44,004 nt of DNA from a virus (taxonomy: Duplodnaviria > Caudoviricetes). Position numbers and translations under genes: made by a program. This document shows positions 3,512 to 30,578 of the stretch, piece by piece. The stretch spans positions 1 through 44,004 of IMG/VR virus record IMGVR_UViG_3300017648_000002; one strand, written 5' to 3'. Below the pieces are notes generated by a model. It had not been told where the DNA came from. It saw nothing but the letters and a program-made list of their open reading frames with translations, and searched no databases. Within the stretch, counting starts at the first letter, position 1. Every line of letters starts with the position of its first letter.

Positions 3512-4183
3512 TCAACGGCGTCTTGAATGGCCGTTGTAGAAGGATTTTTCACTGGTCGTGCCGAGTCGTGCGCGCAAGACGTTGTGCATGCCAGGAAGCG
3601 TGCCAGGTGCCGGGATCTCATTGCGCTCAGCAACTTCAGCCACGATGTTCTCGTACTCATCACGACTCTCGGCAAACTTGTCTAGTGGCCCACTGATGAA
3701 GTAGTGCTGTTTGAGGGCAAAGGCCAGTACCGCCTCTCCGTTCACAAGCACTGGGTCGCTGTCTTCCTCCAGTGGTGCAGGCGCTGCAAAGTACCAGTAC
3801 GGTGCCTCGTCATCTGTGGTGGGCGTCGGTGTAAACGTCAACTGGTAGCGTCCAGTTGACAGGTCACGCGCAACAGCAACGGTCACGCGCTTCTCGAACG
3901 GATCGGTGTAGACAATCGAGCCGTCTGCGGATGTCAACACGTAGAGCCCGTTGGGCTTGGCAAAGTCTTCTGGCAGGGTGTAGGTCGCCGTACCGCTCTG
4001 GATCGAAAGCGTGTCGTGCTTGAGTAGCTCCTTGAGAAAGAGGCGGGAAGCGATATCTTGTCGGGCACGATTGAACCAGCGCGTGCGTCTGCGATAGCGA
4101 ATATCGTTGGTTGCAGGTGGTGCGCTCTCATTGGTGAAGTCGGAAAAGGCTTCGTGGAGCGCTTCAAGGGTCGTGAGCGTCAT
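3512..4183 (-). CDS. Head-tail adaptor (connector) protein
   Basis: 223 aa, 'WFNRARQDI...GTATYTLPEDF' pattern; lies between capsid and tail tubular genes. Confidence 0.65.
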   Translation of the reverse strand: MTLTTLEALHEAFSDFTNESAPPATNDIRYRRRTRWFNRARQDIASRLFLKELLKHDTLSIQSGTATYTLPEDFAKPNGLYVLTSADGSIVYTDPFEKRVTVAVARDLSTGRYQLTFTPTPTTDDEAPYWYFAAPAPLEEDSDPVLVNGEAVLAFALKQHYFISGPLDKFAESRDEYENIVAEVAERNEIPAPGTLPGMHNVLRARLGTTSEKSFYNGHSRRR

Positions 4184-4188
4184 ATTCG

Positions 4189-4218
4189 ATGATACAGGCG
4201 AGAGGCTGGGAGGTTAAC
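4189..4218 (-). promoter_or_regulatory. Late promoter motif GTTAAC-N18-TATCAT, leaderless ATG 5 nt downstream
   Basis: Near-identical to the copy at 43708-43737. Confidence 0.8.
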
Positions 4219-4708
4219 GCTGGGGAAAGTTCAGGGCGGCATAGTCGCCAAAAAGATCAATCGCTGCTTTGTCATAGGCACGGGCAGCCTCCTCTTCCGT
4301 TGCGAAATAGCCGAGTTGGCGGAACTTCCCCTGATACTGGATGTATCCACGCCACGGCTTGGATTTCAGCCGTTTAACGAACGAGACACCCTTAAAACGC
4401 TTGCCATTACGCAGTATCCGATTGCGCACATTGTCCAGATGCGTGCAGACCCGCAAATTCTCCTTGCGATTGTCGAGCTTGTCGCCATTCTTGTGGTCGA
4501 CTTCCAGGTAGTTGCCGATAGCCCCGATAATGAAACGGTGCATAGCAACGCTCCGGTAGCGCCTCTCGTTTGGTAGCCACTCCTTGCGGTATGCGTAGAT
4601 GTTGCCGTGCCCCTTGTCATTGGCGTGCCATTTGTAGGCATTGACACGATCAAAATCCTCATCATCGACGATGGTGGACAGGCCTTTGGTGAGTTTTATC
4701 TTTCGCAT
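4214..4708 (-). CDS. HNH-AP2 homing endonuclease
   Basis: MHRFI...VDHKNGDKLDNRKENLR (HNH) plus FKGV...WRGYI...LGYFATEEEAARAYDKAA...ALNFP (AP2). Confidence 0.9.
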   Translation of the reverse strand: MRKIKLTKGLSTIVDDEDFDRVNAYKWHANDKGHGNIYAYRKEWLPNERRYRSVAMHRFIIGAIGNYLEVDHKNGDKLDNRKENLRVCTHLDNVRNRILRNGKRFKGVSFVKRLKSKPWRGYIQYQGKFRQLGYFATEEEAARAYDKAAIDLFGDYAALNFPQR

Positions 4709-4810: not shown

Positions 4811-6016
4811 CTAGCTAAGTCCGAGGTTGTAAAGGTAAGCTGCGCCTGCTTTGACGGTCTTCATACCGAAGATGTATTCGCCTAGCACTTGCCATTTGTG
4901 GCTATCGCCGTTTTCAGCGAGCTTTTTCGTGAACCATGCACGGTTCTTGAACGCTTTGTGACCGATTTTGTCTTCATCAACGATGAAAATCATATCGTTG
5001 AACTCAACGCCCGGAATCATCACCACATCAAGCTCCCCTACCTGTGAGGTATAGGTCTTGACGGCGGTAATACCGCGGTTGGTGTCTTTGCGTTCGCTTC
5101 GAACTGAGTTTAAGCCGAACAGACCCATGTATCGAAGAGCTTTGTAGCCCACGTACATAGCGGTCGGTTTTCCTCGGTTGTTAGCAATCGTCTCGATCGC
5201 ATCATCGATCTTTTCCTGCGCCTTGGTGTATTCCAAGATACCTGAGGTCACGATGGTTGATGAGGTCTTCCATGCACTTGCCCCACCCATATCGATCGCA
5301 TTGCTTGAAGCGTAGGTGTCAACGAAGAATTTCATTCCTCCGGTTGTTCTGCGATCAGAAAGCGTGTCGTTATGGCGTCTTCCGAAGAAGTAGGCGAGCT
5401 GTTGCATTTGCAAGAGCTCTTTTTGCTTGGTAACGATCTGGTTTTGAGAGTTTGATCCACCCTCTTTGGTGCGGTAGATGAACGCGTTTTCCTCAGTATC
5501 TGTCATCTCCACCACGTCCTCAAAGATTTGAGTGTAGTTGTAGAAGTCAGATAACGGTTGGCGAACGGCTCCATCTGCATCAGCGCCTTCAGGAGCTGCG
5601 ATACCGATACGTCGGATCACGGCTTCATCAAGAGCGGTTGCAGGGGTTGTGCTTGCCCATCCACGAGAGACGGTAAGGGTCACGCCATCAGAAGCGACGG
5701 CGGTTACGACCATATGCTCTGAGCCGACTTGCACCACATCGTCTTTGTTAAAGACGCCCGCTGTCTCAACGACAACCTCGGTTCCGTCAGTGGATTCGAG
5801 TGCTGAGCCAAGCTTATCCTGGGTTGGTCTGAGGTTTTCCTCTTTCCATTCCGTCTTGGTGTTATCGACGGTCTTTTCGAAGATGTCCCCACCAATGCGG
5901 TTTAAGAGCGGTAGCTCCAGCTTTGGGTATTTCCCGACGAAATCTTCGATCGAAACCCGTAGCGTACCGAGTGAACTCTGGTCATAGGTTGATTGTTTTC
6001 CATAGACTGCTGCCAT
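4811..6016 (-). CDS. Major capsid protein (SU10/DUF5309-like HK97 fold with an inserted beta domain)
   Basis: 401 aa after the scaffold gene; 'KTEWKEENL', 'YNYTQIFEDVVEMT', 'RTTGG', 'LAENGDSHKWQVLGEY' motifs; followed by a terminator. Confidence 0.85.
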   Translation of the reverse strand: MAAVYGKQSTYDQSSLGTLRVSIEDFVGKYPKLELPLLNRIGGDIFEKTVDNTKTEWKEENLRPTQDKLGSALESTDGTEVVVETAGVFNKDDVVQVGSEHMVVTAVASDGVTLTVSRGWASTTPATALDEAVIRRIGIAAPEGADADGAVRQPLSDFYNYTQIFEDVVEMTDTEENAFIYRTKEGGSNSQNQIVTKQKELLQMQQLAYFFGRRHNDTLSDRRTTGGMKFFVDTYASSNAIDMGGASAWKTSSTIVTSGILEYTKAQEKIDDAIETIANNRGKPTAMYVGYKALRYMGLFGLNSVRSERKDTNRGITAVKTYTSQVGELDVVMIPGVEFNDMIFIVDEDKIGHKAFKNRAWFTKKLAENGDSHKWQVLGEYIFGMKTVKAGAAYLYNLGLS

Positions 6017-6055: not shown

Positions 6056-6895
6056 TTAGCGCCTGGAGAGAGCGGCTTGGACCCGCTTGGCGAGAAGTTC
6101 ATCGGGGCTCATCCTGGATTCATCATCCTTTGGTTGGCCTGAGACGCCCGGCGTGGGGATTGCTCCAGCACGCTTTCGCACAATTTCGGTTTCAGCCTGG
6201 GTAGAGGCAGCCTTGCGTTGCTTGCTCAGGTACGTAAAGGTCGTATCGACCACCTCTTTGAGTGAGGCCTTGCCTTCGAGTCCGCCTTGCGCGATATAGC
6301 GCTCAGCGATGAACTGCTCAAGCTCAGGGTCGAACTGCTCTTTGTTCCTGGGATCAAGCTCCGGATGCTCTGAGCGGACAACTGCCTTCTCCTCGTCATA
6401 GCGCCGGTGCATTTGCTGCGCCTGGCTCATGTTCTTGGAGAGATAGGTCATCCCCTGCTCGATCTTCTTGGCAGTACGCTCATCCAACATCTGGGTCAGC
6501 TTCAATGCATCGACTGATCCGTTGGGGAGAGTGGCTGCTTCAACGATCTTGGCAAGCTCATCCTCTTGTCCCTCTTTCGGTGCCTGCGTCCCTTCAACCT
6601 CTCGCATGTATTCCTTGAGAAGCTTGGGATCGCCCAAGAGACGCCGCATGTCAGCGTTCTCGTTTTTGATCTGTTGGTAGTACCGGGATTCGGGTTCTTT
6701 GGCGACTTTCGTGCCGCGATCCGTTACCTCAGTGCCTTCCTGATCCTGGTCTTTGCCAGTATCACCTTCGACAGATTGCGAGGTTTCGGATGCATCGGGA
6801 GTCTCCTCCTGATGTTCGGAAGTGGCGTAGTCTTCCTGGGGTGCATCTCCACCCTCTGGGGTGACGCCTGGTATTGGTTGATTATCTTCGTCCAT
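6056..6895 (-). CDS. Capsid scaffolding protein
   Basis: Acidic, disordered N-terminus, helical, directly upstream of the capsid gene. Confidence 0.7.
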   Translation of the reverse strand: MDEDNQPIPGVTPEGGDAPQEDYATSEHQEETPDASETSQSVEGDTGKDQDQEGTEVTDRGTKVAKEPESRYYQQIKNENADMRRLLGDPKLLKEYMREVEGTQAPKEGQEDELAKIVEAATLPNGSVDALKLTQMLDERTAKKIEQGMTYLSKNMSQAQQMHRRYDEEKAVVRSEHPELDPRNKEQFDPELEQFIAERYIAQGGLEGKASLKEVVDTTFTYLSKQRKAASTQAETEIVRKRAGAIPTPGVSGQPKDDESRMSPDELLAKRVQAALSRR

Positions 6896-6956: not shown

Positions 6957-6986
6957 AGTATAGCGACGCTGCTATGTCTCGTTAAC
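6957..6986 (-). promoter_or_regulatory. Late promoter motif GTTAAC-N18-TATACT for the scaffold-capsid operon
   Basis: Same spacing as the other copies. Confidence 0.7.
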
Positions 6987-7529
6987 TGCTTCGGGATTTT
7001 GGAGTGAATCAGGTTGATTTGACGAGCCAAAGTTGAGGAACGCGAACTCTCCGTGTAGCCTACGTGCCGCTCGGTCATATGATCTTGCGGCCGCTTCGAG
7101 TGATTGGAACCGTCCGAGGATGCGCACTTTTCCGTTCACGCGGATCTCGGCTCTCCATTTCTTCCAGGCTTTCCCGCAGCGCGGACACCACGGTCCTTTG
7201 CGACTCTCACGGTAGACCCCTTTGTAGGGGAGGCCTGACGCTTTCCGTGGACGGCTGTTCAGAGAGTTTTGGCGATAGGTGCACACGCGAAGATTGGCTC
7301 GTCGATTGTCAAGCCCGTCGTGATTTACGTGATCGACCAGCATCTCGGTCGGAGGGTTCAGAATAAAGCGATGGAGTGGCGTCTTGGTTGCCTGCCGGGG
7401 AAGTATGGTCGCTGCATAGAAGTACCCAGGTCTGGGTTGAACTGCATGCCATCGATGTTTGAGAACACGAGCGGCGTCCTCATCATCGATGATCGCCTCT
7501 TTGCCTTGGGTTAGAGGAATACGCGTCAC
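6972..7529 (-). CDS. HNH-AP2 homing endonuclease
   Basis: LHRFIL...VDHVNHDGLDNRRANLR plus AP2 (YKGV...WRAEI...LGRF..LEAAARSYD...FLNF); GTG start 6 nt after TTGACA-N17-TATCGT. Confidence 0.9.
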   Translation of the reverse strand: MTRIPLTQGKEAIIDDEDAARVLKHRWHAVQPRPGYFYAATILPRQATKTPLHRFILNPPTEMLVDHVNHDGLDNRRANLRVCTYRQNSLNSRPRKASGLPYKGVYRESRKGPWCPRCGKAWKKWRAEIRVNGKVRILGRFQSLEAAARSYDRAARRLHGEFAFLNFGSSNQPDSLQNPEAVNET

Positions 7530-7640
7530 TCTTCCACGATAGCACAACTATTGCCTTATGTCAATCGAATCAGGCTGGAGGTACTCGGTTTAGCTTGCGA
7601 TGACGGGCTGTTTAGCGCGAACACTATTTTGTAGGCTCAA

Positions 7641-8223: not shown

Positions 8224-8253
8224 ATTATGGCGGGTCGGGTGGCGTGGGTTAAC
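8224..8253 (-). promoter_or_regulatory. Late promoter motif GTTAAC-N18-CATAAT
   Basis: Conserved spacing; its TAA is the stop codon of the 8249-8557 ORF. Confidence 0.7.
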
Positions 8254-8557
8254 GAAACGGGAGCAACTTGCCGTCTTGGAGGCGATGAACACCGGGGACG
8301 AATTGCTTGCCCACGCTACAGTTCCGGCACTTGACCAGCACCATGCCGTTCTGGCGTTTGCCACCATCAACGAACTGATACTGGTGATTGTCTGGCGCGC
8401 AAACGCGGTGCGGAATGAGTGGGACGTGGATGAAGCGCCGTTTGACCTGACGCTCCCCCATCTCGACCTTACCCTGCTCGTTCATGACGAGTGCGGGTTG
8501 CGTGATCGTCTCGATCTGCCACTCATTGAGTGGGATCTCCTGGGTGTGCTCGTCCAT
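8249..8557 (-). CDS. Small hypothetical protein with C..H / CxxC (possible Zn ribbon)
   Basis: 102 aa ORF with a leaderless GTTAAC motif. Confidence 0.6.
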   Translation of the reverse strand: MDEHTQEIPLNEWQIETITQPALVMNEQGKVEMGERQVKRRFIHVPLIPHRVCAPDNHQYQFVDGGKRQNGMVLVKCRNCSVGKQFVPGVHRLQDGKLLPFR

Positions 8558-8562: not shown

Positions 8563-8592
8563 ATTATGGCAGGTGGAGCTGGCGTGGTTAAC
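8563..8592 (-). promoter_or_regulatory. Late promoter motif GTTAAC-N18-CATAAT, leaderless ATG 5 nt downstream
   Basis: Conserved spacing; its TAA is the stop codon of the restriction endonuclease gene. Confidence 0.8.
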
Positions 8593-9439
8593 GGTCGCGC
8601 CAGACCCATCCGTCAGGGGCTAGGGTTGCGATCCACTCGTCTTTACCGAGAAGTGGTAATCCAAGCACCTCTGCTTCTCGACGCTGGTCAAGATACGTCT
8701 CACAGATGACGATGATGCCCTCGCTACGCAGGTTGATCCGCGACTGACGCGCCCGGCGCAATGAGTCTCTCTGTTGAGCGACGGATTCGACGACCCCGCG
8801 GGGGATGGGTCGGTTATGCACCTGTCGGAACAGCTCATCGAGTCGTCGCTGTCCAGAGGTGTGCCCCATGATCGTTGTTCGCGTCTCCTCATCGATGTGG
8901 AGCAGAATGTTCTCGGGCAGTCTCCCCTCAAGCACCAGCCAGCGCAGAGCCCGTCTGCCCTCCTCGTTGAGACCTGCTTTGGTATCGCGGTTCCTGCCCG
9001 TATTGCGATTGGTGTCGGTCACTCGAACAAGACCGATTGAGAAGCGCGACTTATCGTCGTCTGCTGAGACAACCAGGATGATGTGATTGACGGCTTCATC
9101 CGGGATTGACCAGTTTCTGCGGATGGTGAACTTCGAATCGACTTCGACTCCATCGATCAAATAGTCCATGCGATGACCTGTGCCCAGATCAAACTCAGCA
9201 CGCAGTAAGATCTCCACTTTGGTGCCGATATAGGTCTTTTCTGGCCTGGAGAGCTGATCGACATCCCAACGCCCCGTTCGTGGACCATCAATGACCTCAT
9301 CGAGGGCACGGCGAAGCGCAGTACCTGCTCGCTGTTCGAAATCCGGCACGGTACGGAAGAACCGCTCTACACGATCAAGCTCGTCGTCACGATCCCCACC
9401 TCCCGCCAGAGACAAGGATCCTGGTGGCATTGTGTTCAT
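8588..9439 (-). CDS. NaeI-family type II restriction endonuclease
   Basis: 'LDEVIDGPRTGRW...EKTYIGTKVEI...MDYLIDGVEVDSKF...WSIPDEA...NRDTK...LPENILL...SGQRRLDELFR' matches the NaeI family pattern; next to a C5 MTase. Confidence 0.85.
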   Translation of the reverse strand: MNTMPPGSLSLAGGGDRDDELDRVERFFRTVPDFEQRAGTALRRALDEVIDGPRTGRWDVDQLSRPEKTYIGTKVEILLRAEFDLGTGHRMDYLIDGVEVDSKFTIRRNWSIPDEAVNHIILVVSADDDKSRFSIGLVRVTDTNRNTGRNRDTKAGLNEEGRRALRWLVLEGRLPENILLHIDEETRTTIMGHTSGQRRLDELFRQVHNRPIPRGVVESVAQQRDSLRRARQSRINLRSEGIIVICETYLDQRREAEVLGLPLLGKDEWIATLAPDGWVWRDR

Positions 9440-9546
9440 TGACCGCTAGTATCGGTCAACTCCCAGCTCGTGCAACTGGAACATCTGTGCGAAGGCTGCC
9501 AGGAGCCCTACAATCGTTGTGTTGTGATAGTGAGAGGAATGCTACC

Positions 9547-9837
9547 GTGGTTCAGGTACACGATCAGATCGACGAGTATCTCACCCGTCTCCAGGAGCTG
9601 GCTCACGCTCGGAGCCATGTCGATCGCTTCTATCTGTTCATGGGAGATGATCGTCTCGCGGATCTTGAGTACGAGCTGGCGAATTCCGACCGGGCAGACG
9701 CCTTCTACAACCGACTGCTTGACCTGTATCGAGCATGGAAGGCTGAGATGAGTCCCGCTCAATGGGCTGAGGTCGTTGCCCACAATGATGCGCTCAACGG
9801 AGCGAACCAGAACGCGCTTATTGACGAGCTTGCGTGA
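9547..9837 (+). CDS. Hypothetical acidic helical protein between the R and M genes
   Basis: GTG start with a GAGAGGA SD; 96 aa. Confidence 0.55.
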   Translation: MVQVHDQIDEYLTRLQELAHARSHVDRFYLFMGDDRLADLEYELANSDRADAFYNRLLDLYRAWKAEMSPAQWAEVVAHNDALNGANQNALIDELA

Positions 9838-9845
9838 ACCGGGTC

Positions 9846-10868
9846 TCAGTCTGCGACAGCAAGTTCGCGTGCCTCGGCTCTGATGAACGCATCCTTGATC
9901 GCTCGACCGACCGCCTCTGCAACTGGTGGAGGGAAGGCGTTGCCGACCTGACGGTACGCGGGAGTCTTCTTGCCAAAGAATTGCCAGTCTGGTGGGAAGC
10001 CTTGAATGATCGCAGCCATTCGAACAGTTAGCTGTGGCATGCCCTCGTGATCTGCTCCAGGGGGTACATCAGCGATCCGGTTGCCATCGACTCCCAGTCG
10101 CATCCATGCCTGCCTCGCTCTGGTTGGGCCGAGATCAGGTCCGCCGTGCTTTTTCGATCCACCAACAATCGTCGGGGCGATATCACATGCCCCACGTGCC
10201 CACTCCGACGCACCCTGCCAACCGTCCTGCGCCATTTCGTCATGGAGCGCCTCGCCAACAGTCGGCGGTCGCAGAAGCCGATCAGGGTTTTCATCAGGCC
10301 ACTGGAAATGCTCAAGGTCGGTGTCGCGCATGGCGATCAAAATCGTTCGAGGTCGCAGTTGTGGAACACCGAACATCGAGGCATTCAGTAGTCTCCAGCG
10401 TGGCTCGTATCCGTACTCACGCAACTGCGCATCAATGCGCTCACGGTAATGGTCAAACCGCGGGCTCAGCAATCCACGCACGTTTTCAAGCATGACCGCA
10501 CGAGGCTGGCATTCTGCAACAAGGCGAAGAGCCTGGGGAAACAGATCCCGTTCATCAAGGTCACCGAGTTGTTTGCCTGCAACGGAAAAGGGCGGACAGG
10601 GAACGCCACCAGCCAGTAAGTCAACGTCGCGGAAGTACGGACGAGCTGAGAAGTGGTGGATATCACCGGCGTAGGGGTTGTCAAGTGTCGGGGGACCGAT
10701 GACATTCCACTCAGGTCGATTGTTGCGTAATGTCTGGCAGGCGTGAGGGTCAATCTCTACCAAAGCCAGATGCTGGAAGCCTGCTCGCTCCAGTCCAAGT
10801 GCCTGCCCACCGGCGCCAGCACAGATCTCGATCGAGGTGTACTCCGGCTCGTGGCTACCAAGCGCCAT
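9846..10868 (-). CDS. DNA cytosine-5 methyltransferase (M.NaeI/NgoMIV-like, probably GCCGGC)
   Basis: Motif I (ICAGAGG), IV (GGVPCPPFS), VI (ENVRG), VIII (QLRPR), X (QVGNA); TRD 'APTIVGGSKKHGGPDLGPTRAR'. Confidence 0.92.
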   Translation of the reverse strand: MALGSHEPEYTSIEICAGAGGQALGLERAGFQHLALVEIDPHACQTLRNNRPEWNVIGPPTLDNPYAGDIHHFSARPYFRDVDLLAGGVPCPPFSVAGKQLGDLDERDLFPQALRLVAECQPRAVMLENVRGLLSPRFDHYRERIDAQLREYGYEPRWRLLNASMFGVPQLRPRTILIAMRDTDLEHFQWPDENPDRLLRPPTVGEALHDEMAQDGWQGASEWARGACDIAPTIVGGSKKHGGPDLGPTRARQAWMRLGVDGNRIADVPPGADHEGMPQLTVRMAAIIQGFPPDWQFFGKKTPAYRQVGNAFPPPVAEAVGRAIKDAFIRAEARELAVAD

Positions 10869-11064
10869 TGCATGCCTCGCTTCAATAGAACGTCATGCGT
10901 GTCCGTAACCCGCGTACGTACGATAGAACAAAATTCTACACGTAGTATAGCACGAACGGATGTGCTAATTGCTAAGGTAGTCCACTAGACGCACGACTTT
11001 CCTTTCACGTATACTGAGGCTGAACGTACAGAACAGATGATCTCATTGTGATCGGAGGCGACTC

Positions 11065-11559
11065 ATGGCGCGCAAGGTCTTCTACAGCTTTCACTACAAG
11101 GCTGACAGTTGGCGGGTCGCTAAAGTGAAAAACATAGGCGCGATCGAGGGTCAGCCCGTGCTGACAGCAAATAAGTGGGAAGAGGTGGCTAGCAAGGGAG
11201 ACGCGGCAATCAAGAAGTGGATCGACGACAACATGCGAGGCAAGAGCTGCAATATCGTCCTCATCGGGAGCGAGACAGCCAGCCGTCCGTGGGTGGACTA
11301 TGAGATCAGATCAGCCTGGGACAACCGCAAAGGCGTGGTTGGTATCTACATTCATAACCTAACGGATCAGAACGGCGACACAGCCAGAATGGGAGCCAAT
11401 CCGTTCTCGAGCATCTCCTTAAAGGATGGTCGTAACCTGAGCTCAATCGTCAAGACATACAATCCTGCGGGTATGACGAGCGACGCGGTATATCGAACCA
11501 TCGCGGAAAACATCGAGGTTTGGGTGGAGGAAGCGATCTTCATTCGCAACAGCGCGTGA
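11065..11559 (+). CDS. ThsB-like (MTH538/DUF1863) TIR domain protein
   Basis: 'RKVFYSFHY..DSWR...WEEV...IKKWIDDNM.GKSC.IVLIG.ETA.RPWVDYEI' with the catalytic Glu. Confidence 0.88.
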   Translation: MARKVFYSFHYKADSWRVAKVKNIGAIEGQPVLTANKWEEVASKGDAAIKKWIDDNMRGKSCNIVLIGSETASRPWVDYEIRSAWDNRKGVVGIYIHNLTDQNGDTARMGANPFSSISLKDGRNLSSIVKTYNPAGMTSDAVYRTIAENIEVWVEEAIFIRNSA

Positions 11560-11561
11560 GC

Positions 11562-11969
11562 ATGCCGGTGGAGCGCATCAAGCATCTGGAGTTCATCCAG
11601 GCTGTTATTGCACGCCAAGCCGCCAACTCATTCACTGTACGAGGATGGTCGCTGACCGTCTCGGCAGCCATTTACGCCTACGTGGCAGCCAACCTGAGCT
11701 TTTGGCTAGCGCTCATCGCACTGTTACCTGGCGTCGCTTTCGGCTGGATCGACGCATATTACCTTCGCCAAGAACGTCTTTTCCGAGAGCTTTACCAAGA
11801 CGCCATCAAGCCAGACACCTCGGTCTCGATGTTCTCCATGGACACGTCACAGTATTGCAACTCTTCTCGCTGCACCTACTGGTCAGCGATCAAATCAAAC
11901 CCTTTGATGGTGATGCATGGCGTCATCGTTATTATCGGGGTTGTTCTACTCGGGGTTGCGATCTTCTAG
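11562..11969 (+). CDS. Multi-TM membrane protein, candidate effector of the TIR
   Basis: 'RIKHLEFIQAVIARQAANSFTVRGW', about 3 hydrophobic segments and 'DAYYLRQERLFRELY'; starts 2 nt after the TIR stop. Confidence 0.75.
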   Translation: MPVERIKHLEFIQAVIARQAANSFTVRGWSLTVSAAIYAYVAANLSFWLALIALLPGVAFGWIDAYYLRQERLFRELYQDAIKPDTSVSMFSMDTSQYCNSSRCTYWSAIKSNPLMVMHGVIVIIGVVLLGVAIF

Positions 11970-12398
11970 AGCTTCGGTTCGGCAGTAGCCACGGATAGCA
12001 TCTGCAACATCTTCTAGGATTTGCTCGGGAGTTGGCGTTTTTGGTGGCCAGATATCACCGACAGCGTCATCTCCCCAACGAGGCACAAGATGGATATGTA
12101 AATGCATCACTGTTTGGGTGGCGACCTCCCCCACCGAGGAAATCAGATTCATCCCTTCCGGCTTCAGCACTGCACGAAGCGCCCGTCCCACTCGTAGGAC
12201 GCTCGTACCGAGCTCAGGAATATCAGCAGGGTTAAGTTCCAGGAAATTCTCGATGTGGCGCTTCGGGATCACCATCGTGTGTCCACGTGTCGCCGGTTCG
12301 AGTGGAAAGAAGGCGAGCGTGTGCTCAGTCTCATAAACAACCTCAGCAGGAATCTCTCGATTCACGATTCGACAGAAGTCACAATCATGGATGCTCAC
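11946..12398 (-). CDS. HIT family nucleotide hydrolase
   Basis: 'CDFCRIV', 'GHTMVIPKRH', 'QTVMHLHIHLVPR' histidine triad. Confidence 0.92.
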   Translation of the reverse strand: MSIHDCDFCRIVNREIPAEVVYETEHTLAFFPLEPATRGHTMVIPKRHIENFLELNPADIPELGTSVLRVGRALRAVLKPEGMNLISSVGEVATQTVMHLHIHLVPRWGDDAVGDIWPPKTPTPEQILEDVADAIRGYCRTEALEDRNPE

Positions 12399-15229: not shown

Positions 15230-15259
15230 ATTGTAGAGGGGTACAAGCCCATCGTTAAC
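15230..15259 (-). promoter_or_regulatory. Late promoter motif GTTAAC-N18-TACAAT, leaderless portal ATG 7 nt downstream
   Basis: Conserved spacing; its TAA is the stop codon of the sigma4-like gene. Confidence 0.8.
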
Positions 15260-15791
15260 GCTTGAAGATCCCCTCCTCACTGATGCCAGCCTTCTTGAGC
15301 ACCGCCTGCATGCGCTTCATCGTCATGCGTACCATCGCCTTGTTAAAGCCCCAGATCGAGGCGATGTCCTCATAGCGAAAGGCAAAGCCTTGCTCGCGCA
15401 GATAGAGCATCAGCGTGATGACACGATAGCGATCCTTGGGTAGTGTCTTGAGGACAAACAGGAGTGTGTCTTCCTTGCCTGCATCAGCCATGACCCCATC
15501 TTCAGTGCCAAACTCGATCTGATCCTCAGCATCAACGCCACCTGCCTCCATCTGGGAGAACGTCACCGTGCTGGGCAGGTCCTCAAAGCGCAGTACTCGA
15601 CTTGAGGCAGGGACTCCCAGCATCTGTTTGTAATCGAAAAAGCAGTAGGAGTGAACGGTGCCATCAGCACTCTCGGTGTCAAGACGCAGGTGCGCCGGAA
15701 ACGAGTGTCCGCATACATCACAGACCCTGTTATCAGGATGATTGATAGCTGTCGTGAAGACACCTGTACCGAGTCGGTAACGGGCTTTCAC
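15255..15791 (-). CDS. Putative late transcription activator: N-terminal CxxC/H/C Zn-binding region plus C-terminal sigma70 region-4-like HTH
   Basis: 'LKTLPKDRYRVITLMLYL..QGF.FRYEDIASIWGFNKAMVRMTMKRMQAVLK' follows the sigma4 pattern (LP.R.R.VI.L.Y....Y.EIA..LG.....V....R....L). Confidence 0.6.
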   Translation of the reverse strand: MKARYRLGTGVFTTAINHPDNRVCDVCGHSFPAHLRLDTESADGTVHSYCFFDYKQMLGVPASSRVLRFEDLPSTVTFSQMEAGGVDAEDQIEFGTEDGVMADAGKEDTLLFVLKTLPKDRYRVITLMLYLREQGFAFRYEDIASIWGFNKAMVRMTMKRMQAVLKKAGISEEGIFKR

Positions 15792-16450
15792 GCTCCCCTC
15801 CTTCCCGCAACAAAGCTCTTCTCTGGCTTGTACCAGGCTGGTGGCGTGAGTGAGGCTGGTAGCTGTGGTCTCTCTGCGAGCTGATACAACTGCCAGGCGA
15901 TTGCCAGTGCCATCACGAGGTCATCATGGGCACCAGACTCAGCCTGTGCCTTCCATGAGGATGAGGTCTTGACCACAACAAATGCGAAGAGTTCCTCGAT
16001 CGTGCGTCGGTCATACAGTCCAGTGATCAACTGCTTGTCGATCGCCTCCTTGAGATCTGCGAGCATCTTGGGGCGAGTTGCCGTGTTGGTATCCCAGCCC
16101 AGACGCTTGGTCTCCTCAGTCTGCACATTCCCATAGGTCGGCATCTGGAAGACATCAAACTTCCCCAATCGGTTAAGAGCAGCCAAGCGCTCCATCTCAA
16201 ATAAACCTCCGTTTGAACGTTCATACGCGACCATCGGAGGAAGACCTGTCGTGTCGTAGAGTGTCTCAAGCACCGGATAGAGCTCGTTGGTCATCGTGGT
16301 GGCAAGAGTCTTTGAGTGGTAGACGAGTGGCACGTCGAGCTTGTCGACGGAGAGGAACTGAGCGGTGCAGTAGTCTGCTCCACCAGCTGCGGTGTCCCCG
16401 CCTACGACGAGGAACTCATTCGATTCAATTTTTCGATACTGCCTAAACAC
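15788..16450 (-). CDS. Terminase large subunit, nuclease (RNase H-like) domain as a separate gene
   Basis: 'VVGGDTAAG.ADY', 'YERSNGG', 'LGWDTN..TRP', 'HDDLVMALAIA'; GTG start with an AAGGAGG SD. Confidence 0.85.
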   Translation of the reverse strand: MFRQYRKIESNEFLVVGGDTAAGGADYCTAQFLSVDKLDVPLVYHSKTLATTMTNELYPVLETLYDTTGLPPMVAYERSNGGLFEMERLAALNRLGKFDVFQMPTYGNVQTEETKRLGWDTNTATRPKMLADLKEAIDKQLITGLYDRRTIEELFAFVVVKTSSSWKAQAESGAHDDLVMALAIAWQLYQLAERPQLPASLTPPAWYKPEKSFVAGRRGA

Positions 16451-16637
16451 GGCCCTCCTTCCGAAGTTCTTCAAGCAACTCTTTGATGCTGTATCTCTTG
16501 GTCACGTACGTCATCGGCTTACTCCAGTCGTATTTCACGATCTGGCCGTTCGGAAGTACACCAACGTTCCTGCACCCCTTGCCCCTGTAGCGCTTCACCC
16601 CAAGCACCCAGTTGTGGAGGCGATTACGCAAGGTCAT
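16443..16637 (-). CDS. Small basic hypothetical protein between the terminase halves
   Basis: 64 aa; ATGA overlap with the ATPase stop; GGAGG SD. Confidence 0.55.
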   Translation of the reverse strand: MTLRNRLHNWVLGVKRYRGKGCRNVGVLPNGQIVKYDWSKPMTYVTKRYSIKELLEELRKEGRV

Positions 16638-17437
16638 GCGTAGACCACCCCCTCCCCTATCGGCTCACGAGCAGCGCCCAGATAAGCACTGAGACTCTCG
16701 GTATCAAAGAATGTGTCGCCCGATGTGAGAAAGGCCTCTTCTGCCGTCATTGGGTACTCCTGCTTGAACAGACGTCCCAGCTCGCCTTTCTTCTGCTCGA
16801 GAAACTCCGTGCTGTACTCCCAGGTCGGGTTGTAGAAGTGGTCCTTGAATGGTCGCTCTCCACGCCTGGTCTCATCCCAGAACGTCTTGAAGAAGTTGAA
16901 GCCGTTGGCGGTGGTCTCGATGAACACCTTGCCATCAGGGATCACTGCTTGCAGGACACCCGACAGGATGGCCTCTGGATTGGGGTAGAACGCAAACTCG
17001 GAGAGATGGAGGTTGGTGATCGTATCGCCTCGACCGAACGACTTACTCTCAGCTGTTCCGATGTAGAAGGTGGAGTTGGTCAGCTCATTGACGATCTCAG
17101 AGCGGGAGTTGTACTTCATCGGGATCTTGATCTTGTTGCGTGCCTCAAAGCTGGCCAGGTAGAACTTGACCCGGTCCATCAGACGCTGGGTAGCATCGGT
17201 CTCGTGGGAGACCACCACACAGCGCTGGTTTTCTTTGAAGATGAAGTCGGTGGTGAGGATGGCAAGGATCAGACTAGAGAATCCCAGTTGGCGGGCTTTG
17301 AGAATGATGTCTCGACCCGTGCCGTGCTTGAGGAAGTCAGCTTGTGCCCGGTTCAGCATAAACGAACGTTTATTCCCTGATTTGTCGATCAGGTCATACT
17401 CGTTCTCGATCGGTCGTTGATAGTTACTCCAGCTCAT
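16634..17437 (-). CDS. Terminase large subunit, ATPase domain
   Basis: Q-motif 'LNRAQ', Walker A 'ILKARQLGFS', Walker B 'LHLSEFAF', motif III 'ETTANG', 'FKQEYP...EAF'. Confidence 0.9.
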   Translation of the reverse strand: MSWSNYQRPIENEYDLIDKSGNKRSFMLNRAQADFLKHGTGRDIILKARQLGFSSLILAILTTDFIFKENQRCVVVSHETDATQRLMDRVKFYLASFEARNKIKIPMKYNSRSEIVNELTNSTFYIGTAESKSFGRGDTITNLHLSEFAFYPNPEAILSGVLQAVIPDGKVFIETTANGFNFFKTFWDETRRGERPFKDHFYNPTWEYSTEFLEQKKGELGRLFKQEYPMTAEEAFLTSGDTFFDTESLSAYLGAAREPIGEGVVYA

Positions 17438-17798
17438 ACTCCTTGCGTTTGTCGGTGATCACCGTGTTGTTCTGAATGAGTGTCGTGGGCTGGGGCTTGA
17501 AGTCTGGATGGCGATTCTTGAGGTAGAAGATGACGGCTGTCATGTCCCCACTTGAGGCCTTATTGATCAGCACGTCGCGGATATCATCGTTGAGTTCTGA
17601 CTCAGCCTGGACCACCTCGTCGAGGAAGCTGGGGTCATCCTCAAGCCATTTGTAGTAGGTGGTGCGGGAAATGCCAGCTATCTGACATGATTGGGTGATG
17701 TGCCCGAAGAGCTGACGATAGGCCTCGACAAACTTCTGCTTTTTAACTGCGTTCAGTTTGTCTACTGCAGACTGATGCTGAGTGACCGTGTTGGGCAT
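17424..17798 (-). CDS. Terminase small subunit (HTH)
   Basis: 'KFVEAY...ITQSCQIAGISRTTYYKW..DP.F...GDMTAVIFYLKNR'; directly upstream of the TerL ATPase gene. Confidence 0.8.
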   Translation of the reverse strand: MPNTVTQHQSAVDKLNAVKKQKFVEAYRQLFGHITQSCQIAGISRTTYYKWLEDDPSFLDEVVQAESELNDDIRDVLINKASSGDMTAVIFYLKNRHPDFKPQPTTLIQNNTVITDKRKEYELE

Positions 17799-17809: not shown

Positions 17810-17838
17810 ATTGTAGCGAGTGTTATGTCATGTTGCAA
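17810..17838 (-). promoter_or_regulatory. sigma70-type promoter TTGCAA-N17-TACAAT for the terminase operon
   Basis: Consensus-like boxes with 17 bp spacing. Confidence 0.6.
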
Positions 17839-18045
17839 CTACCACCACGTCTCAAGCACGCGATGCTCACGCTTATAGGCAATCTCACAGGACTTGTTGC
17901 AGTAGTAGTGGGTCTGTCCCATCCGCTTGCGGTGCAGGGGCTTTGCCTGAGTGGTTCCACAGTGTGCGCAGGTGATCGTAAACGTTTGTTGGTTGCCTCT
18001 AATCTTCATCTGTTGGTAGGTTGCGTTCCCAATGCCTGGCGTCAA
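17839..18045 (-). CDS. Small Zn-finger protein (CxxC...YCxxxC)
   Basis: CAHCG...YYCNKSC; start codon uncertain. Confidence 0.5.
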   Translation of the reverse strand: MTPGIGNATYQQMKIRGNQQTFTITCAHCGTTQAKPLHRKRMGQTHYYCNKSCEIAYKREHRVLETWW

Positions 18046-25708: not shown

Positions 25709-26062
25709 TTACCGCACCGCAACACGATGCGAGAAGGTTCGTTTTTCGACCTGTCTTACTGGTACGCTGTTGGCAAGCCCGACTGCGTACTCGATGCCTG
25801 GCTCCATGAGCTGGTCATAGCGCGTGCCATGCTCAAAGGTTAGGTGGTCAATCAGATCGTGGCACTCGTTTGTGCCTTCACCTCGACAAAGACCTACCAG
25901 ATTATCTGGGTTGTCTCGTCCGCCTCGAGCACGAGGCAGAACGTGATGAACAGAGATACAGCCAGATCCGCCTGGCGGGTGTTGTTGTCCGCAGAGTGCA
26001 CAACGGTAGTGCTGGCGCTCACGGACGTTCTTCCTCAGCTGATGGGAGAGTCTCTCGGACAT
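25709..26062 (-). CDS. HNH endonuclease
   Basis: CALCG...VHHVLPRARGGRDNPDNLVGLC......CH. Confidence 0.85.
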   Translation of the reverse strand: MSERLSHQLRKNVRERQHYRCALCGQQHPPGGSGCISVHHVLPRARGGRDNPDNLVGLCRGEGTNECHDLIDHLTFEHGTRYDQLMEPGIEYAVGLANSVPVRQVEKRTFSHRVAVR

Positions 26063-26300
26063 TCAGGCTGGAGAAGAAGTCTGATTGCTGGGGTTGGGTC
26101 TGGTAGGGCGCAAGCTGCCTGGTGTAATAGGCGATGTGATTTCGTGCCAGCTGGATATTGAACGAGGCGTCGTAGCCCATTCTCAGGTCGTAGGCGCTAC
26201 AGGCGTCGTTGCCTCGCGCTTCTAGGTCAGCCAGGCGGGCCCTGCTCTCTGCAAGCCCAGCTTCCAGTTCTTCCCGTGATGGTGGTTTGTAGCGTTCCAT
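26019..26300 (-). CDS. Hypothetical protein
   Basis: 93 aa, in an apparent operon. Confidence 0.5.
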   Translation of the reverse strand: MERYKPPSREELEAGLAESRARLADLEARGNDACSAYDLRMGYDASFNIQLARNHIAYYTRQLAPYQTQPQQSDFFSSLNVRETLPSAEEERP

Positions 26301-26304
26301 AGGT

Positions 26305-26760
26305 TCAGGTCAGGAGAGTGCCGATCATCTGCTCCACGTCATGACGTTCAATATGCTTCCAGGCAGGTTGTCCGATTGCGACACGTTCAACACCACCAAG
26401 CCACTGACGCCTGAGCTTGTAATCAGCAAACTCAACGAGTGAGTAGCGGTCTTTCTTCAGCTCCTCAGCCCTGCCCTCAGGATTGCCCTGATAGTGCTCG
26501 ATCACCCGAAACGGATCCTCATAATCAAATCGATGGGGCAAAAGCTTTGTTCCGGCTTCTGCAACCAGCACCTCGATCATGTTGGTCACACTGGTGTTGG
26601 TGTTATCGGGCAGTTCTGAGAACAGCAGGACTGGGGAGTCAGTCGGTCTGTCATAGATCCGCAGGCGACAACGACCACCGTCGTCGTAAAACCCACGATA
26701 CTCGTAGATCTCGTCGATCAGCAGTTTGGTTTGTTGTTCACTCGGCTTGTGTCGTTCCAT
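26305..26760 (-). CDS. Hypothetical protein
   Basis: 151 aa, 'CRLRIY...SELPDN..TSVTN..E...IEHY'. Confidence 0.6.
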   Translation of the reverse strand: MERHKPSEQQTKLLIDEIYEYRGFYDDGGRCRLRIYDRPTDSPVLLFSELPDNTNTSVTNMIEVLVAEAGTKLLPHRFDYEDPFRVIEHYQGNPEGRAEELKKDRYSLVEFADYKLRRQWLGGVERVAIGQPAWKHIERHDVEQMIGTLLT

Positions 26761-26767
26761 AGCTCTA

Positions 26768-26953
26768 TTATCGTTTCAGCTCGTCTTTGGATGGCAAACG
26801 AACGTAGATTCGTTCGACGGTCTTGGTCTTCACATCGACGTCGCTGGCGGAAATCTTTCCTTCACGAATCCAGCGGTAGACCGTCTGCCTGGGCACCCCA
26901 AGGCGTTTGGCGTAGGTGTGAACCGGGACGAAGTCCTCAGTTGTTTGATTCAT
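26768..26953 (-). CDS. Excisionase/MerR-like HTH protein
   Basis: 'YAKRLGVPRQTVYRWIREGKI'. Confidence 0.75.
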   Translation of the reverse strand: MNQTTEDFVPVHTYAKRLGVPRQTVYRWIREGKISASDVDVKTKTVERIYVRLPSKDELKR

Positions 26954-27377
26954 CAAGTTCGAGTTTGTAGTTTTCATATTCTTGTCGGCGCTGTGTGACC
27001 ACCTCCTTAATCAGCGCCTTGTAAAAGGACGGGTTCTTGTCATATTTCCACTCAGGTATCCGGATTGTGACCCAGCCCTTGTGACGGAGCACAAAATCGC
27101 GGCGGTCATCCTGCTTTCGGCTCTTTGCAGGCCGATGTCCTATACCATCAACTTCGAGTGCGACCTGCTCCTTGAGAAAGGCGAAGTCGATTACGTATAG
27201 ACTTGAGATCGGATGCTGACGCACGTAGTCGATTCCCAGCTCGTACCCTAGGTCAGCCAGGATCTCGATGATCTTCTCCTCGTTCTGGCCGGCCATGCTG
27301 TCTTTCCAGACCTGCATGTGAACTTGCTTGTCGAAGAAGCGATTTCGCTGATCTAACCTAGTACTACGTTTTGCCAT
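26937..27377 (-). CDS. DUF559/Vsr-like endonuclease
   Basis: 'RQHPI..YVIDFA......LEVDG..H......D..RD..L...GW..IRI'. Confidence 0.8.
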   Translation of the reverse strand: MAKRSTRLDQRNRFFDKQVHMQVWKDSMAGQNEEKIIEILADLGYELGIDYVRQHPISSLYVIDFAFLKEQVALEVDGIGHRPAKSRKQDDRRDFVLRHKGWVTIRIPEWKYDKNPSFYKALIKEVVTQRRQEYENYKLELDESNN

Positions 27378-27464
27378 GGTATGTGTCTTAAAGTGGCACT
27401 CGTTACTTTAGTGCGTTACTTAATTAACATAATACCACATTGGCAAGTCAGATTCAATGAGCAA

Positions 27465-28370
27465 TTAGTTCTGCAGTTCGTCGAGTGGTGCTTTGTAGAA
27501 CCGATCAATACCGTTGATCAGCGTCTTTGAAACCTGGGCGATCTGCCCGAGCTTTTCCTTGAACAGCTCACGGTCTTGTGACCAGTTGGTGATATAGCCA
27601 AACGAGTAGTCACTGGTATCAAGCCCGTAGTGCTGTGCCACTACAAACGCCGAACTCTCAGCCACCAGCTCAGCCTCTTCACGCGGGGTGGAAAAGCGAT
27701 GATCTGCCTGGTAATGAGCGGATTCGTGCGCCAGTGTCTTGGCCTGCATGTCAATCGCAAGGTCTGGTCTGACGTGGATCACGGGTGATCTGCCTTCCCG
27801 TCCTGGACGATATGACCCTTTGGCTTCTGGTGTATCAGGTACCGGTGCACGAAATAGCACCACGCCTTCCCCTGCAAGCCAGTCCCAGTTAGCCATCAAC
27901 AGCCGGTGGCCGGTCTCAGTCGAGCTCTCAAGATCTCCGTCTGGTCGCGGTGCTTGCGGAAGCTCGTCCCCATCAGTCTGGCTCACATCAAAGACGCTCA
28001 CAATTTTGTAGCCACGCAGTCTCTCGATGACCTCTCCAGTCTCACGATCAACCTCCCTTTTCAGCAGTGGGGCAAAGATCTTGATCGACTTCTCCCCAGC
28101 CCTGACCTGACGACCAACGGATTTCCAGCCGGTGCGCCCGTCTTTGGAGCCATAGCCCATGACGCGGGTAGCATCAGGATTCTGCATCCAGATCAGCATC
28201 TGATTGTTTGCGCTATAGGTATGAAATTTTGAGGCAAATTGCAGGTAGCGTTTGAACTCTTCTGAGTCGTGGATGCGGTCGATGCCAGCCTCAAGCAGCT
28301 GCATGGCTGCATCGATACGAGGATCACCCTGAGGCTTTGCTTCCTCGGGTGTTGGTCTTGGGATCTCCAT
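27465..28370 (-). CDS. ArdC-like antirestriction ssDNA-binding protein with a metallopeptidase-like domain
   Basis: 'FHTYSANNQMLI..Q.PDAT.V.GY...W...GRQV..GEK.I.I.AP', 'VFDVSQTDG', 'TLAHESAH', 'E..AES.AF.V'. Confidence 0.85.
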   Translation of the reverse strand: MEIPRPTPEEAKPQGDPRIDAAMQLLEAGIDRIHDSEEFKRYLQFASKFHTYSANNQMLIWMQNPDATRVMGYGSKDGRTGWKSVGRQVRAGEKSIKIFAPLLKREVDRETGEVIERLRGYKIVSVFDVSQTDGDELPQAPRPDGDLESSTETGHRLLMANWDWLAGEGVVLFRAPVPDTPEAKGSYRPGREGRSPVIHVRPDLAIDMQAKTLAHESAHYQADHRFSTPREEAELVAESSAFVVAQHYGLDTSDYSFGYITNWSQDRELFKEKLGQIAQVSKTLINGIDRFYKAPLDELQN

Positions 28371-28476
28371 CTCTTTCAAACGTCGAGCTGGTGGGTAGGT
28401 AAGCGAGGCCAAAGCCGTAGCTCACAATCGTCCACCGCTCAACATAATCCAATTATAAAGGTTTGTTTATTATTTC

Positions 28477-29850
28477 TCAATCACGGGTAACACGGCTGAG
28501 TCTGGGAAGCCTCGTCGGTTGGGGCAGTTCAATCGTCGCGGGCTTAAACCAGCGTTCGATCTGCTCACGCTCGATCTGGCTGACATCAATATCTGGATCA
28601 AGCACGTCTTCAGTCACGATGTGGTGGACAGACAGATCCGGGAGCTTGACCAGCGCATGGCGTGGGGGCAGGTTCTGGAGGGTTTGGGTGATTGCCTCCA
28701 CCTGATCAGACGCTGACACCGATACGACGACTGACTCCTCACGTGTGGCAATCGTCCGTGCATCAACCTTAGTGAAGTTCAGCGCCGTCAACTGGGCATC
28801 GGGTCTGTCCAGCTGGAACGCTACCTTGAGCCTGGCATTGCCCATCGCGCCTCTGAGACGATCGGATGCTTGTGTCCAGTTCTGGTGCGCCATCACCAGA
28901 AACAGCCCGTACTTGCGGGTCTGGGAGAGCATCGTCTGCATCGCTTCCTCACTTTGGGCACTGAAGCGGGCAAACTCGTCGATCATCGCGACGTGCGTCC
29001 GCCTCACGTCACTATCGTGTCGGGAAAGCGCTCCCTGCTCATACATGACGGTAAAGAGTGAGCCGATGAGTCGGGCTGTCTGACTGCTCAGCCCAGCCAG
29101 ATTGACCAGCACATGCTGACCACGATCCATAACCTCTCTGAAATTCAATGCCAGCTCTTCATGACCCAGTGAGTAGCGCAACACCTCATCAAAGGAGAGC
29201 AGATCAACACGCGAGAGCGTCGAGTCTGCGTACTCGCTTTGCAATCGGTCGGGAAGTTTGTCGTACCAGTTACGCCAGTGGCGAAGCACCCGATTATCAG
29301 TCTCATGCTCAAGCACCTGAGCGCGAAACCCTTTATCAGTCAGAAACCAGGACAGATCTGGAAGTGTGCCGTTGCCTGCCGTCAGTGCCTTGACCCCGTT
29401 TAGCACCAGCTTGTCAAAGCGCGGTGCCACCCCACCTGAGAGGCTCGGCCAGGCACGATGAAACGACTCCAGGATGTTGAGCGCGACCTGCGTCCTGGCT
29501 CCGTCCTGCTTGAGTACGTTGAAGGGCAGAAACCTCGATCTGTCCGCAGCGCGTTTGAAATCCAGATAGATGGTGTTTCCCAGATGCTCCGGCTTGTCCT
29601 GTGCGATTTTACCCAGAATCAGCTTGGCAAGATCCCCATGCGGATCGATTAAGGTAACCCCGATACCCGCTTCAACAAGCCCCAGATAGTAGGAAGCCAG
29701 CCAGCGACTCTTGCCTGAAGATGAGGTGCCAAGCACGTGAACGTGTGTGCCAGCATCCTGCGCGGATAACATCACCCGCTTGGGAAACAGCTTCTCCCAG
29801 AGCGATCCTTCAGGCACTCGTCCGATCGGCAGGGCAGGACGGGTACTCAT
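28477..29850 (-). CDS. VirD4/TraG-like (T4CP-type) ATPase without a TM anchor
   Basis: Walker A GTSSSGKS, IDPHGDL, Walker B IDEFARF, 'RKYGL.L.MAHQ'. Confidence 0.8.
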   Translation of the reverse strand: MSTRPALPIGRVPEGSLWEKLFPKRVMLSAQDAGTHVHVLGTSSSGKSRWLASYYLGLVEAGIGVTLIDPHGDLAKLILGKIAQDKPEHLGNTIYLDFKRAADRSRFLPFNVLKQDGARTQVALNILESFHRAWPSLSGGVAPRFDKLVLNGVKALTAGNGTLPDLSWFLTDKGFRAQVLEHETDNRVLRHWRNWYDKLPDRLQSEYADSTLSRVDLLSFDEVLRYSLGHEELALNFREVMDRGQHVLVNLAGLSSQTARLIGSLFTVMYEQGALSRHDSDVRRTHVAMIDEFARFSAQSEEAMQTMLSQTRKYGLFLVMAHQNWTQASDRLRGAMGNARLKVAFQLDRPDAQLTALNFTKVDARTIATREESVVVSVSASDQVEAITQTLQNLPPRHALVKLPDLSVHHIVTEDVLDPDIDVSQIEREQIERWFKPATIELPQPTRLPRLSRVTRD

Positions 29851-30578
29851 AGGATGTGCGTAAACGCCTCCGGGTCCTTTGCCTGCGCGAGCGTCAGGTA
29901 GTGGAACATGCCCTCACCGTCAATGTTCAGGCGGGTAAGCGTGCTCGTAGTCCAGGCGTGCAGGCGGGTTGTTCTGGCTTCACCTAACCCCACGATCAGA
30001 ACACCATCAAAATGTGGAAAGAAGTTGTCATAAGCATCACTGTTGACGAACTCCACCAGCGACTCGATCTTGTTCTGCCAGAAGGACACGTCCTCAGTAT
30101 CACGATCGACTTCCACAAGCATCCCGTAGGGCTTGCCCGGACGATCAAACTGGATGTAGGCATCTGGCTTGTAGGGGATCACAAAGCGCTGGATCGTGCG
30201 CTCGTGGATGAAGGAAGCAAAGGAGGGCGTAAGCTCTGCTGTCACCAGTACCTCGTTGACATCCAGCGTGTGGGCAGGGTACTGCTTGGTTGCCTTGTCT
30301 TCACTGGGGCGGTAGCGCGCCTTTGGCAACACCCCACTGGCAACCAGACGGCTCCTGGTTCTGGGCGCAAGCGAATAGACGTAGGGGCGAGAGCCACCGC
30401 CAAGACCAGGTGACCAGCCACGCCTCACGAGCACGTTGCTTGTGACGAGCTCTTTCAGGCGCGCCTGAACATAGGTCATCGTGCGCTTGCTGTAAAAGCG
30501 TCTGCAGACCAGCTCAGGTGTCACATAGGTCATCCGACCGACAAGGCGGATGATCCGTTCATCAGATTCACTCATCAT
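29847..30578 (-). CDS. Replication-relaxation (Replic_Relax) family relaxase-like protein
   Basis: N-terminal wHTH 'D..IIRLV.RM.YVT...ARL.EL', 'YVYSL', 'HTLDVNEV', 'PDAY', 'LVEVDRDTE'. Confidence 0.75.
   Translation of the reverse strand: MMSESDERIIRLVGRMTYVTPELVCRRFYSKRTMTYVQARLKELVTSNVLVRRGWSPGLGGGSRPYVYSLAPRTRSRLVASGVLPKARYRPSEDKATKQYPAHTLDVNEVLVTAELTPSFASFIHERTIQRFVIPYKPDAYIQFDRPGKPYGMLVEVDRDTEDVSFWQNKIESLVEFVNSDAYDNFFPHFDGVLIVGLGEARTTRLHAWTTSTLTRLNIDGEGMFHYLTLAQAKDPEAFTHIL

Follow-up and report, generated by a model that had tools for sequence, protein, structure and literature searches.

A predicted stand-alone sigma region 4-like protein and a candidate set of GTTAAC late promoters in a complete phage genome

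Phages that transcribe their late genes with the host polymerase do so, to our knowledge, by a whole sigma factor, a two-part sigma or an upstream activator. The locus described here raises the question of whether a lone region 4-like protein, encoded directly against the portal promoter, might act by reading the -35 position of a set of dispersed promoters. The window, by which we mean the whole stretch of 44,004 nucleotides that was analysed, is the complete virus record IMGVR_UViG_3300017648_000002 and carries a 123-nt direct terminal repeat. Its portal, capsid and adaptor genes give SU10-type family matches, and genes for terminase, endolysin, tail fibre and an internal virion protein are also recognisable.

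A first-pass annotation had listed eight minus-strand promoters in which GTTAAC is followed 18 nt later by a -10 hexamer, and these proved to lie where it had placed them. GTTAAC occurs nine times in the window, and eight of the nine copies (plus-strand starts 1063, 4213, 6981, 8248, 8587, 15254, 40062 and 43732) are followed on the minus strand, at a distance of exactly 18 nt, by a -10 hexamer, namely TACAAT three times, TATCAT twice, CATAAT twice and TATACT once. The remaining copy, at 42018, is intragenic and has no -10, again as first described; its context is A-GTTAAC-A. The pattern GTTAAC-N18-YAYMMT gave eight minus-strand matches, none on the plus strand and none in the reversed control. 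YAYMMT fits 0.25% of positions, for which the probability of at least eight in nine is 1.5e-20, or 1.2e-15 by a binomial corrected for 4096 hexamers, two strands and ten spacers; in 300 first-order shuffles the best pair of hexamer and spacer recurred at most four times. GTTAAC itself is in mild excess (9 copies vs 4.4-7.9 expected), and the signal is the fixed spacing between GTTAAC and the -10 rather than the abundance of GTTAAC. The eight sites are likely the late promoters of the phage. They are given here together with a near-match and the terS promoter.

1039-1068, minus strand: GTTAAC-N18-TACAAT; after 10 nt comes the ATG (1028) of an ORF of 386 aa, unannotated, that spans the terminal repeat
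4189-4218, minus strand: GTTAAC-N18-TATCAT; the SU10 adaptor gene (3512-4183) follows after 5 nt
6957-6986, minus strand: GTTAAC-N18-TATACT, 61 nt before the gene in the scaffold position (6056-6895), which is followed by the major capsid gene (4811-6016)
8224-8253, minus strand: GTTAAC-N18-CATAAT; an unannotated gene of 149 aa (start 8152) follows after 71 nt
8563-8592, minus strand: GTTAAC-N18-CATAAT; an unannotated gene of 102 aa (8249-8557) follows after 5 nt
15230-15259, minus strand: promoter-like GTTAAC-N18-TACAAT, kept in a relative; the portal ATG (15222) follows after 7 nt
40038-40067, minus strand: GTTAAC-N18-TACAAT; the tail fibre gene (38909-40030) follows after 7 nt, with the endolysin gene further downstream
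43708-43737, minus strand: GTTAAC-N18-TATCAT, 5 nt before the gene for a 1210-aa internal virion protein (40070-43702)
30590-30619, minus strand: ninth site with one mismatch, GGTAAC-N18-TATAAT, before the Replic_Relax gene (29847-30578), overlapping the Arg-stop of the upstream gene
17810-17838, minus strand: ordinary promoter TTGCAA-N17-TACAAT, before terS

The claim that a virion gene lies behind each of the eight sites can be kept in part. Four are followed by such a gene on family evidence (adaptor, portal, tail fibre and internal virion protein) and a fifth precedes the major capsid gene; for the other three (gene starts 1028, 8152 and 8557) the assignment is by position only. At six of the eight sites the ATG lies 5-10 nt past the -10, which suggests that these promoters give leaderless or very short-leader transcripts. 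The base before GTTAAC is C in seven of the eight and the base after it is C or G in all eight, so that in the usual register the element reads TTAAC[C/G]-N17-(-10), mismatching TTGACA at -33 and -30; the C at -31 is kept and an A replaces the G at -33. Aligning the eight sites revealed no second conserved block, either in the 12 nt upstream of GTTAAC or in the part of the spacer nearest to it. Four of the sites, and the ninth as well, supply the Arg-stop of the preceding gene; the other four do not, and the motif is therefore no stop-codon artefact. An origin as a homing-endonuclease target was likewise rejected, since a close strain (run X5) is without both HNH-AP2 genes yet aligns across the two adjacent sites, and six sites have no HNH gene. 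GTTAAC is a palindrome, and CGTTAACG is found in two of the eight copies. The site to be read had been described as palindromic; the palindrome may be incidental, given the ordinary 17-bp register and the non-palindromic GTGAAC of a relative (L090, below).

The ninth site was overlooked in the first reading. Its weight-matrix score is 18.6, beside 18.8 for the weakest true site (an in-sample value) and 13.6 for the next candidate, and it may tie a plasmid-like block into the late switch; alternatively it may belong to a class of host promoters. Early, HNH and terminase genes do have sites of the ordinary promoter type, as had been stated: besides the one at terS, the HNH-AP2 genes have TTGACA-17-TATCGT and TTGACT-18-TACAAT, and TTG-type sites also precede several early or cargo genes. 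The terS promoter is likely the source of the sigma4-like gene's own transcript. Each of the two HNH-AP2 genes (window 4214-4708 and 6972-7547), besides having such a promoter to itself, terminates within a GTTAAC site or shortly beyond it. The terS -35 (window 17832-17839) sits within the palindrome GTTGCAAC, the outer triplets of which are common to GTTAAC.

The candidate regulator is encoded at the end of the terminase operon.

15788-17798, minus strand: terS and the terminase large subunit (terL ORFs 16634-17437 and 15788-16474), immediately upstream of the sigma4-like gene
15255-15791, minus strand: gene for a 178-aa stand-alone sigma4-like protein, the last before the portal promoter, with its Arg-stop (CGT TAA) inside the motif at 15254
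15642-15722, minus strand: accessory N-terminal putative Zn site (C24, C27, H47 and C50), invariant in the five closest sequences
15498-15578, minus strand: P-x-S-x-N-F-S motif and acidic linker (residues 72-98), resembling region 3.2, a homology without statistical support
15258-15497, minus strand: predicted sigma region 4-like core (residues 99-178), from AF2, VIA and hhalign

The first-pass annotation had this gene ending inside the portal-site motif, and its TAA does fall within the GTTAAC at 15254. At its other end the ORF overlaps the 3' end of the terminase C-terminal ORF. The large subunit is itself split over two ORFs with a short ORF between them (window 15788-17437), and the closest terminase relative (L009, 67-69% identity) also has a two-ORF arrangement.

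A sigma4-like helix-turn-helix had been suspected in this protein, and structure prediction agrees. The AF2 model of the core has block pLDDT values of 91-95 across residues 108-167 and four helices (residues 99-116, 120-133, 140-147 and 151-167) in a fold with a C-terminal HTH. Its best VIA match among 48,161 solved chains is Thermus aquaticus SigA, with a Z of 8.1 (rmsd 3.2, 79 residues aligned), a level at which the tool warns that the value can reflect a common helical arrangement. Ranks 1-21 are sigma factors or initiation-complex chains and the first non-sigma HTH comes at rank 22 (Z 6.0); the full-length model gave the same VIA picture. The prediction of a region 4-like fold for the core is based on this consistent ranking together with an hhalign E of 8.7e-4 against four E. 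coli sigmas. A sequence search of the PDB at E<=10 returned sigma factors as nine of 13 matches, one of them spanning regions 3.2 and 4, and a HMMER alignment to a SigA crosses the linker (E 0.41). Pfam and PHROG searches returned no match for the protein, Sigma70_r4 and Sigma70_r4_2 included; ESM Atlas gave 0.89 at best, no more than a lead, and no structural match, and Foldseek against viral models gave no match at E<=0.001.

In one hhalign alignment K151, A152 and R155 fall on R584, E585 and R588 of sigma70. As described in PMC2613000, R584 contacts -31 and E585 contacts -33. Since E585 reads -33 and the protein has A152 in the 585 position, the loss of the G at -33 coincides with the loss of the glutamate; coming from a single alignment, the pairing of residues with bases at 584/585 is suggestive. 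No match to sigma region 2 was detected within the protein, and six-frame searches of the genome with PF04542 (Sigma70_r2), PF12645 (HTH_16) and an HMM of the L009 slot-protein family found none either, which upholds the earlier remark that no region 2 is recognisable.

The protein belongs to a family of 47, assembled from 17 near sequences and 34 representatives (with no length limit) less three duplicates and one repeat artefact (P0033). Members are stand-alone proteins of 97-208 aa. The unit common to them is the P-x-S-x-N-F-S motif, the acidic linker and the four helices, with wide variation in the recognition helix. Six of 39 members match Sigma70_r4_2 at E<=0.5, the best at 5.2e-5. The net charge of the linker is -5 to -12 in all 39 of 39 members (median -8), compared with -8 to -11 in the four E. 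coli sigmas, and its spacing is 32-51 residues as against 43-50 in those sigmas. A profile of the linker by itself scored 5.5 against region 3.2, a value equalled by 75 of 100 shuffles. The Zn finger, put beside sigma4 in the first description of the protein, is not its core: CxxC is present in seven of the 47 members and absent from 40, for which reason we regard the Zn site as an accessory add-on. A C-terminal Arg ends 11 of the 17 nearest members (background 8.3%) and only three of the 30 farther ones, as is expected in the nearest if CGT TAA C is kept, these members not being independent of one another. The two longest members, P0009 (by a Pfam AP2 match) and P0025 (by similarity), bear an AP2-like C-terminal domain, possibly the relic of an HNH-AP2 insertion.

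No homologue of the window protein was found in IMG/VR, GTDB genomes or GenBank phages, and a metagenome scan returned four loci. One (L089) is the window's own contig and was set aside, and another (L092) is a false match inside a biosynthesis gene. In L090 the order is terL, a homologue (47% identical), GTGAAC-N18-TATAAT, 5 nt and a portal gene (50% identical). A further relative (run X6) differs at 20 positions in 184 nt of the gene's 3' end, three of them, near the alignment ends, being counted without itemisation, and the alignment reaches the last base of GTTAAC; hand comparison of the loose end beyond it shows an 18-nt spacer in which 11 of 18 bases differ, then TACAAT, then A. Gene and motif thus occur together in these two relatives. 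In both, the pairing is seen only at the portal promoter, a place at which the gene's Arg-stop is itself formed by part of the motif. In three phages (the window, L090 and the X6 contig) the sigma4-like gene directly adjoins the portal site. The fourth locus of the scan (L091:2342-2745) is a family member on a non-phage contig of 60% GC, followed by GTTACA-N18-TATAAT, and its helix has Q at the 584 position and E at the 585 position.

Among 80 terminase-related loci no homologue lies in the flanks, and one has a single motif. For the 36 of these that were searched as whole records the gene is found in none and a single motif in one, and none of six near-complete records has either. Gene and motif are thus absent together in 35 of the 36 terminase relatives and present together in the two others, which supports the first reading on the co-occurrence that it had named as a check. 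As a negative control this is only modest, because the 36 records are mostly fragments with distant portals (20-23% where detected), and their hosts may differ. Scanning IMG/VR for the motif alone picked out 12 loci with a single extended match apiece; none of them has the gene or shared virion proteins, and we put these matches down to chance. In L009 the slot between terL and portal holds an unrelated 146-aa protein (L009:3047-3487) that has five homologues, and the ESM Atlas neighbours of which include a cluster with 54% Sigma70_r2 at a score of 0.96.

A search of GTDB genomes for the host matched neither the sigma4-like regulator nor the portal family, and the portal-family scan of IMG/VR and GTDB gave no match and no further complete relatives by that route. 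The SSB, replication and TrwB-like proteins of the window carried no informative hint. The host may belong to the Patescibacteria or Chloroflexota, which is no more than an impression gained from ribosome-binding sites and gene types. DNA nearly identical to the window is present in soil and wastewater runs, two of which may be the source sample. Contigs from RNA runs (X8 and X18) hold scattered pieces of the window, many at 99% identity, from which strand, starts and levels are not readable; a single identical piece of 151 nt came from run X13, an unrelated 35-nt match from X14 and nothing matching from X17.

From these observations we conclude that the window has a real and unusually clean promoter set and a credible cognate regulator from an unannotated family, and the protein probably does act at, or control, these promoters. 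As to how, we propose, with a probability of roughly 0.4, that it reads the -35 in place of host sigma4 while the host sigma melts the -10. Host holoenzyme would transcribe the terminase operon from TTGCAA-N17-TACAAT, and the product of the operon's last gene would then dock at the seat of sigma4 on the beta flap, its acidic linker possibly following the path of region 3.2. It would read GTTAAC from the -35 position as the host primary sigma melts an ordinary -10, and a single short-leader promoter for each structural gene or operon would be switched on, including the promoter that leads to lysis. Substitution for host region 4 is favoured because the site lies at the place that holoenzyme-bound region 4 would occupy, with no second block just upstream, because the -10 is of the type of the phage's other promoters, and because a lone region 4-like protein is encoded against the portal site in three phages. 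Against it counts the difficulty of displacing host sigma4 without an AsiA-like partner; no such sigma4 remodeller is annotated among the 57 ORFs scanned, many of the small ORFs being without a family. A bolder extension, which we hold to be doubtful, is that a half-sigma family (region 3.2-like linker plus region 4) swaps itself into the host holoenzyme to form a hybrid of host region 2 and phage region 4, the single changed base at -33 making a private late promoter out of a housekeeping one and the variable helix supplying every phage with a -35 code to itself. In related phages the post-terminase slot may be taken by the opposite half, a region-2-only protein, of which the L009 slot protein would be an example.

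A conventional DNA-bound late activator of the RinA/LtrA type, which would bind GTTAAC, possibly dimerising on its palindrome, and recruit intact host holoenzyme with its sigma4 kept, is rather unlikely in our estimation. LtrA and RinA are described as small phage late activators with similarity to sigma70 region 4 (PMC3753634, PMC3152322), GTTAAC is palindromic, and dispersed late promoters are under a single activator in P2 (Ogr), P1 (Lpa) and Mu (C) according to PMC3152322. However, the site comprises exactly the bases that sigma4 would cover, with no second conserved block, the L090 site is not a palindrome, and terS, at whose single promoter the Ltr proteins bind direct repeats, has no motif here. 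The promoters might also need host sigma alone, be it an alternative sigma of the host or the primary one with TTAACS serving as a weak -35, and the phage protein would then have some other role. TTAAC[C/G] agrees with TTGACA at four of six positions, a plain sigma70 scan lists six of the eight sites, the ninth site lies in a plasmid-like module and, like the GTTACA-N18-TATAAT of L091, would also fit a host promoter class, and the GTDB scans with regulator and portal point to no host. We nevertheless judge this account unlikely in view of six invariant bases in all eight copies, as against the varied TTG-type -35s elsewhere in the genome, of the joint absence of gene and motif from 35 of 36 relatives, and of the sigma4-like gene abutting the portal site in three phages.

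A region-2 partner too diverged for recognition would make the protein the region-4 half of a two-subunit phage sigma, like Tn916 Sig7-Sig8 or SigO-RsoA. Such split factors are documented, and in the account of bioRxiv 10.64898/2026.10.01.756105 one of them, Sig8, was not predicted as a sigma beforehand; the Atlas neighbours of the L009 slot protein, with their 54% Sigma70_r2 cluster, lean the same way. The complete genome, however, gives no match to Sigma70_r2, HTH_16 or the L009 family, the -10 hexamers are of the TAYAAT type also seen at terS and the early promoters, and neither hhalign nor Pfam supports the region-2 likeness of the L009 protein, so that we think such a partner improbable. 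We give very little credence to the protein repressing or timing the promoters by occlusion of the -35, or acting as a Q-like antiterminator. A protein at -35 can block polymerase, and lambda Q has a Zn site and an HTH; but repression of structural genes from the terminase operon would be backwards, a promoter per gene makes read-through unnecessary, and no TANNNT pause element follows the predicted starts in the eight-site alignment inspected by eye.

Substitution for host region 4, our preferred reading, can be set beside several known systems. The Ltr superfamily as described comprises RinA, ArpU and LtrA (Sigma70_r4 family II), and RinA and LtrA, their sigma4-like C-termini notwithstanding, are upstream-binding activators (PMC3753634, PMC3152322). 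The window protein resembles them as a small phage protein with a sigma4-like C-terminal domain, linked to the terminase region and proposed as a switch for morphogenesis and lysis genes. It differs in that Ltr genes close the early cluster upstream of terS, whereas here, as in L090, the gene lies downstream of terL, and in that Ltr proteins recognise direct repeats at a single terS promoter, in contrast to eight promoters in the -35 register and a terS without the motif. With two defining features (gene place and the single terS target) failing, it stands outside the Ltr family as described. Two-subunit sigmas include Tn916 Sig7-Sig8, Bacillus subtilis SigO-RsoA, T4 gp55/gp33 and SPO1 gp33/gp34 (bioRxiv 10.64898/2026.10.01.756105). 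These share with our case a region-4-only protein, a mobile element and a redirected host core polymerase (here proposed). Both subunits are element-encoded there, whereas we detected no region-2 partner and the -10 is host-type; a complete sigma70-family factor likewise differs, since it has region 2 in the same chain. T4 sigma appropriation needs two proteins and targets middle genes, and its MotA is not known to be sigma4-like. The pair is AsiA and MotA (PMC6755090), and the common point is a host sigma on the -10 with a phage protein on an element near -35 (here proposed); unlike it, the window would use a single protein of predicted sigma4 fold at a site in the register of sigma4 itself. 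The proposed use of one small factor and host polymerase at several dispersed late promoters has a parallel in P2 Ogr, P1 Lpa and Mu C, with site centres given as about -55, -22 and -30 to -55, none of which is described in PMC3152322 as a stand-alone sigma4. The protein would act like a late activator or a split sigma while belonging, as tested here, to neither described family. No description of the motif or the arrangement was found in open-licence PMC and bioRxiv texts.

If the substitution is true, a lone region-4 module would work in trans with host region 2, which would mean that the promoter-reading halves of sigma are exchangeable in living cells, and small orthogonal -35 readers would become available for engineering. 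Small as it is, the system lends itself to direct test: it offers a 110-residue core, eight natural promoters, controls in the form of the genome's ordinary promoters, and 47 homologues whose recognition helices differ.

The podovirus-like genome, complete as it is, also accommodates a plasmid- or ICE-like block (window 26000-36400) with ParA, a replication-O-like gene, two TrwB/TraD-like genes, Replic_Relax and ArdC. Within the head module (window 8588-12398) lies a defence cargo of a NaeI-type endonuclease, a C5 methylase, a ThsB-like TIR gene and a HIT gene. GCCGGC, which we take to be the NaeI recognition site, occurs once in the window compared with 8.3 expected.
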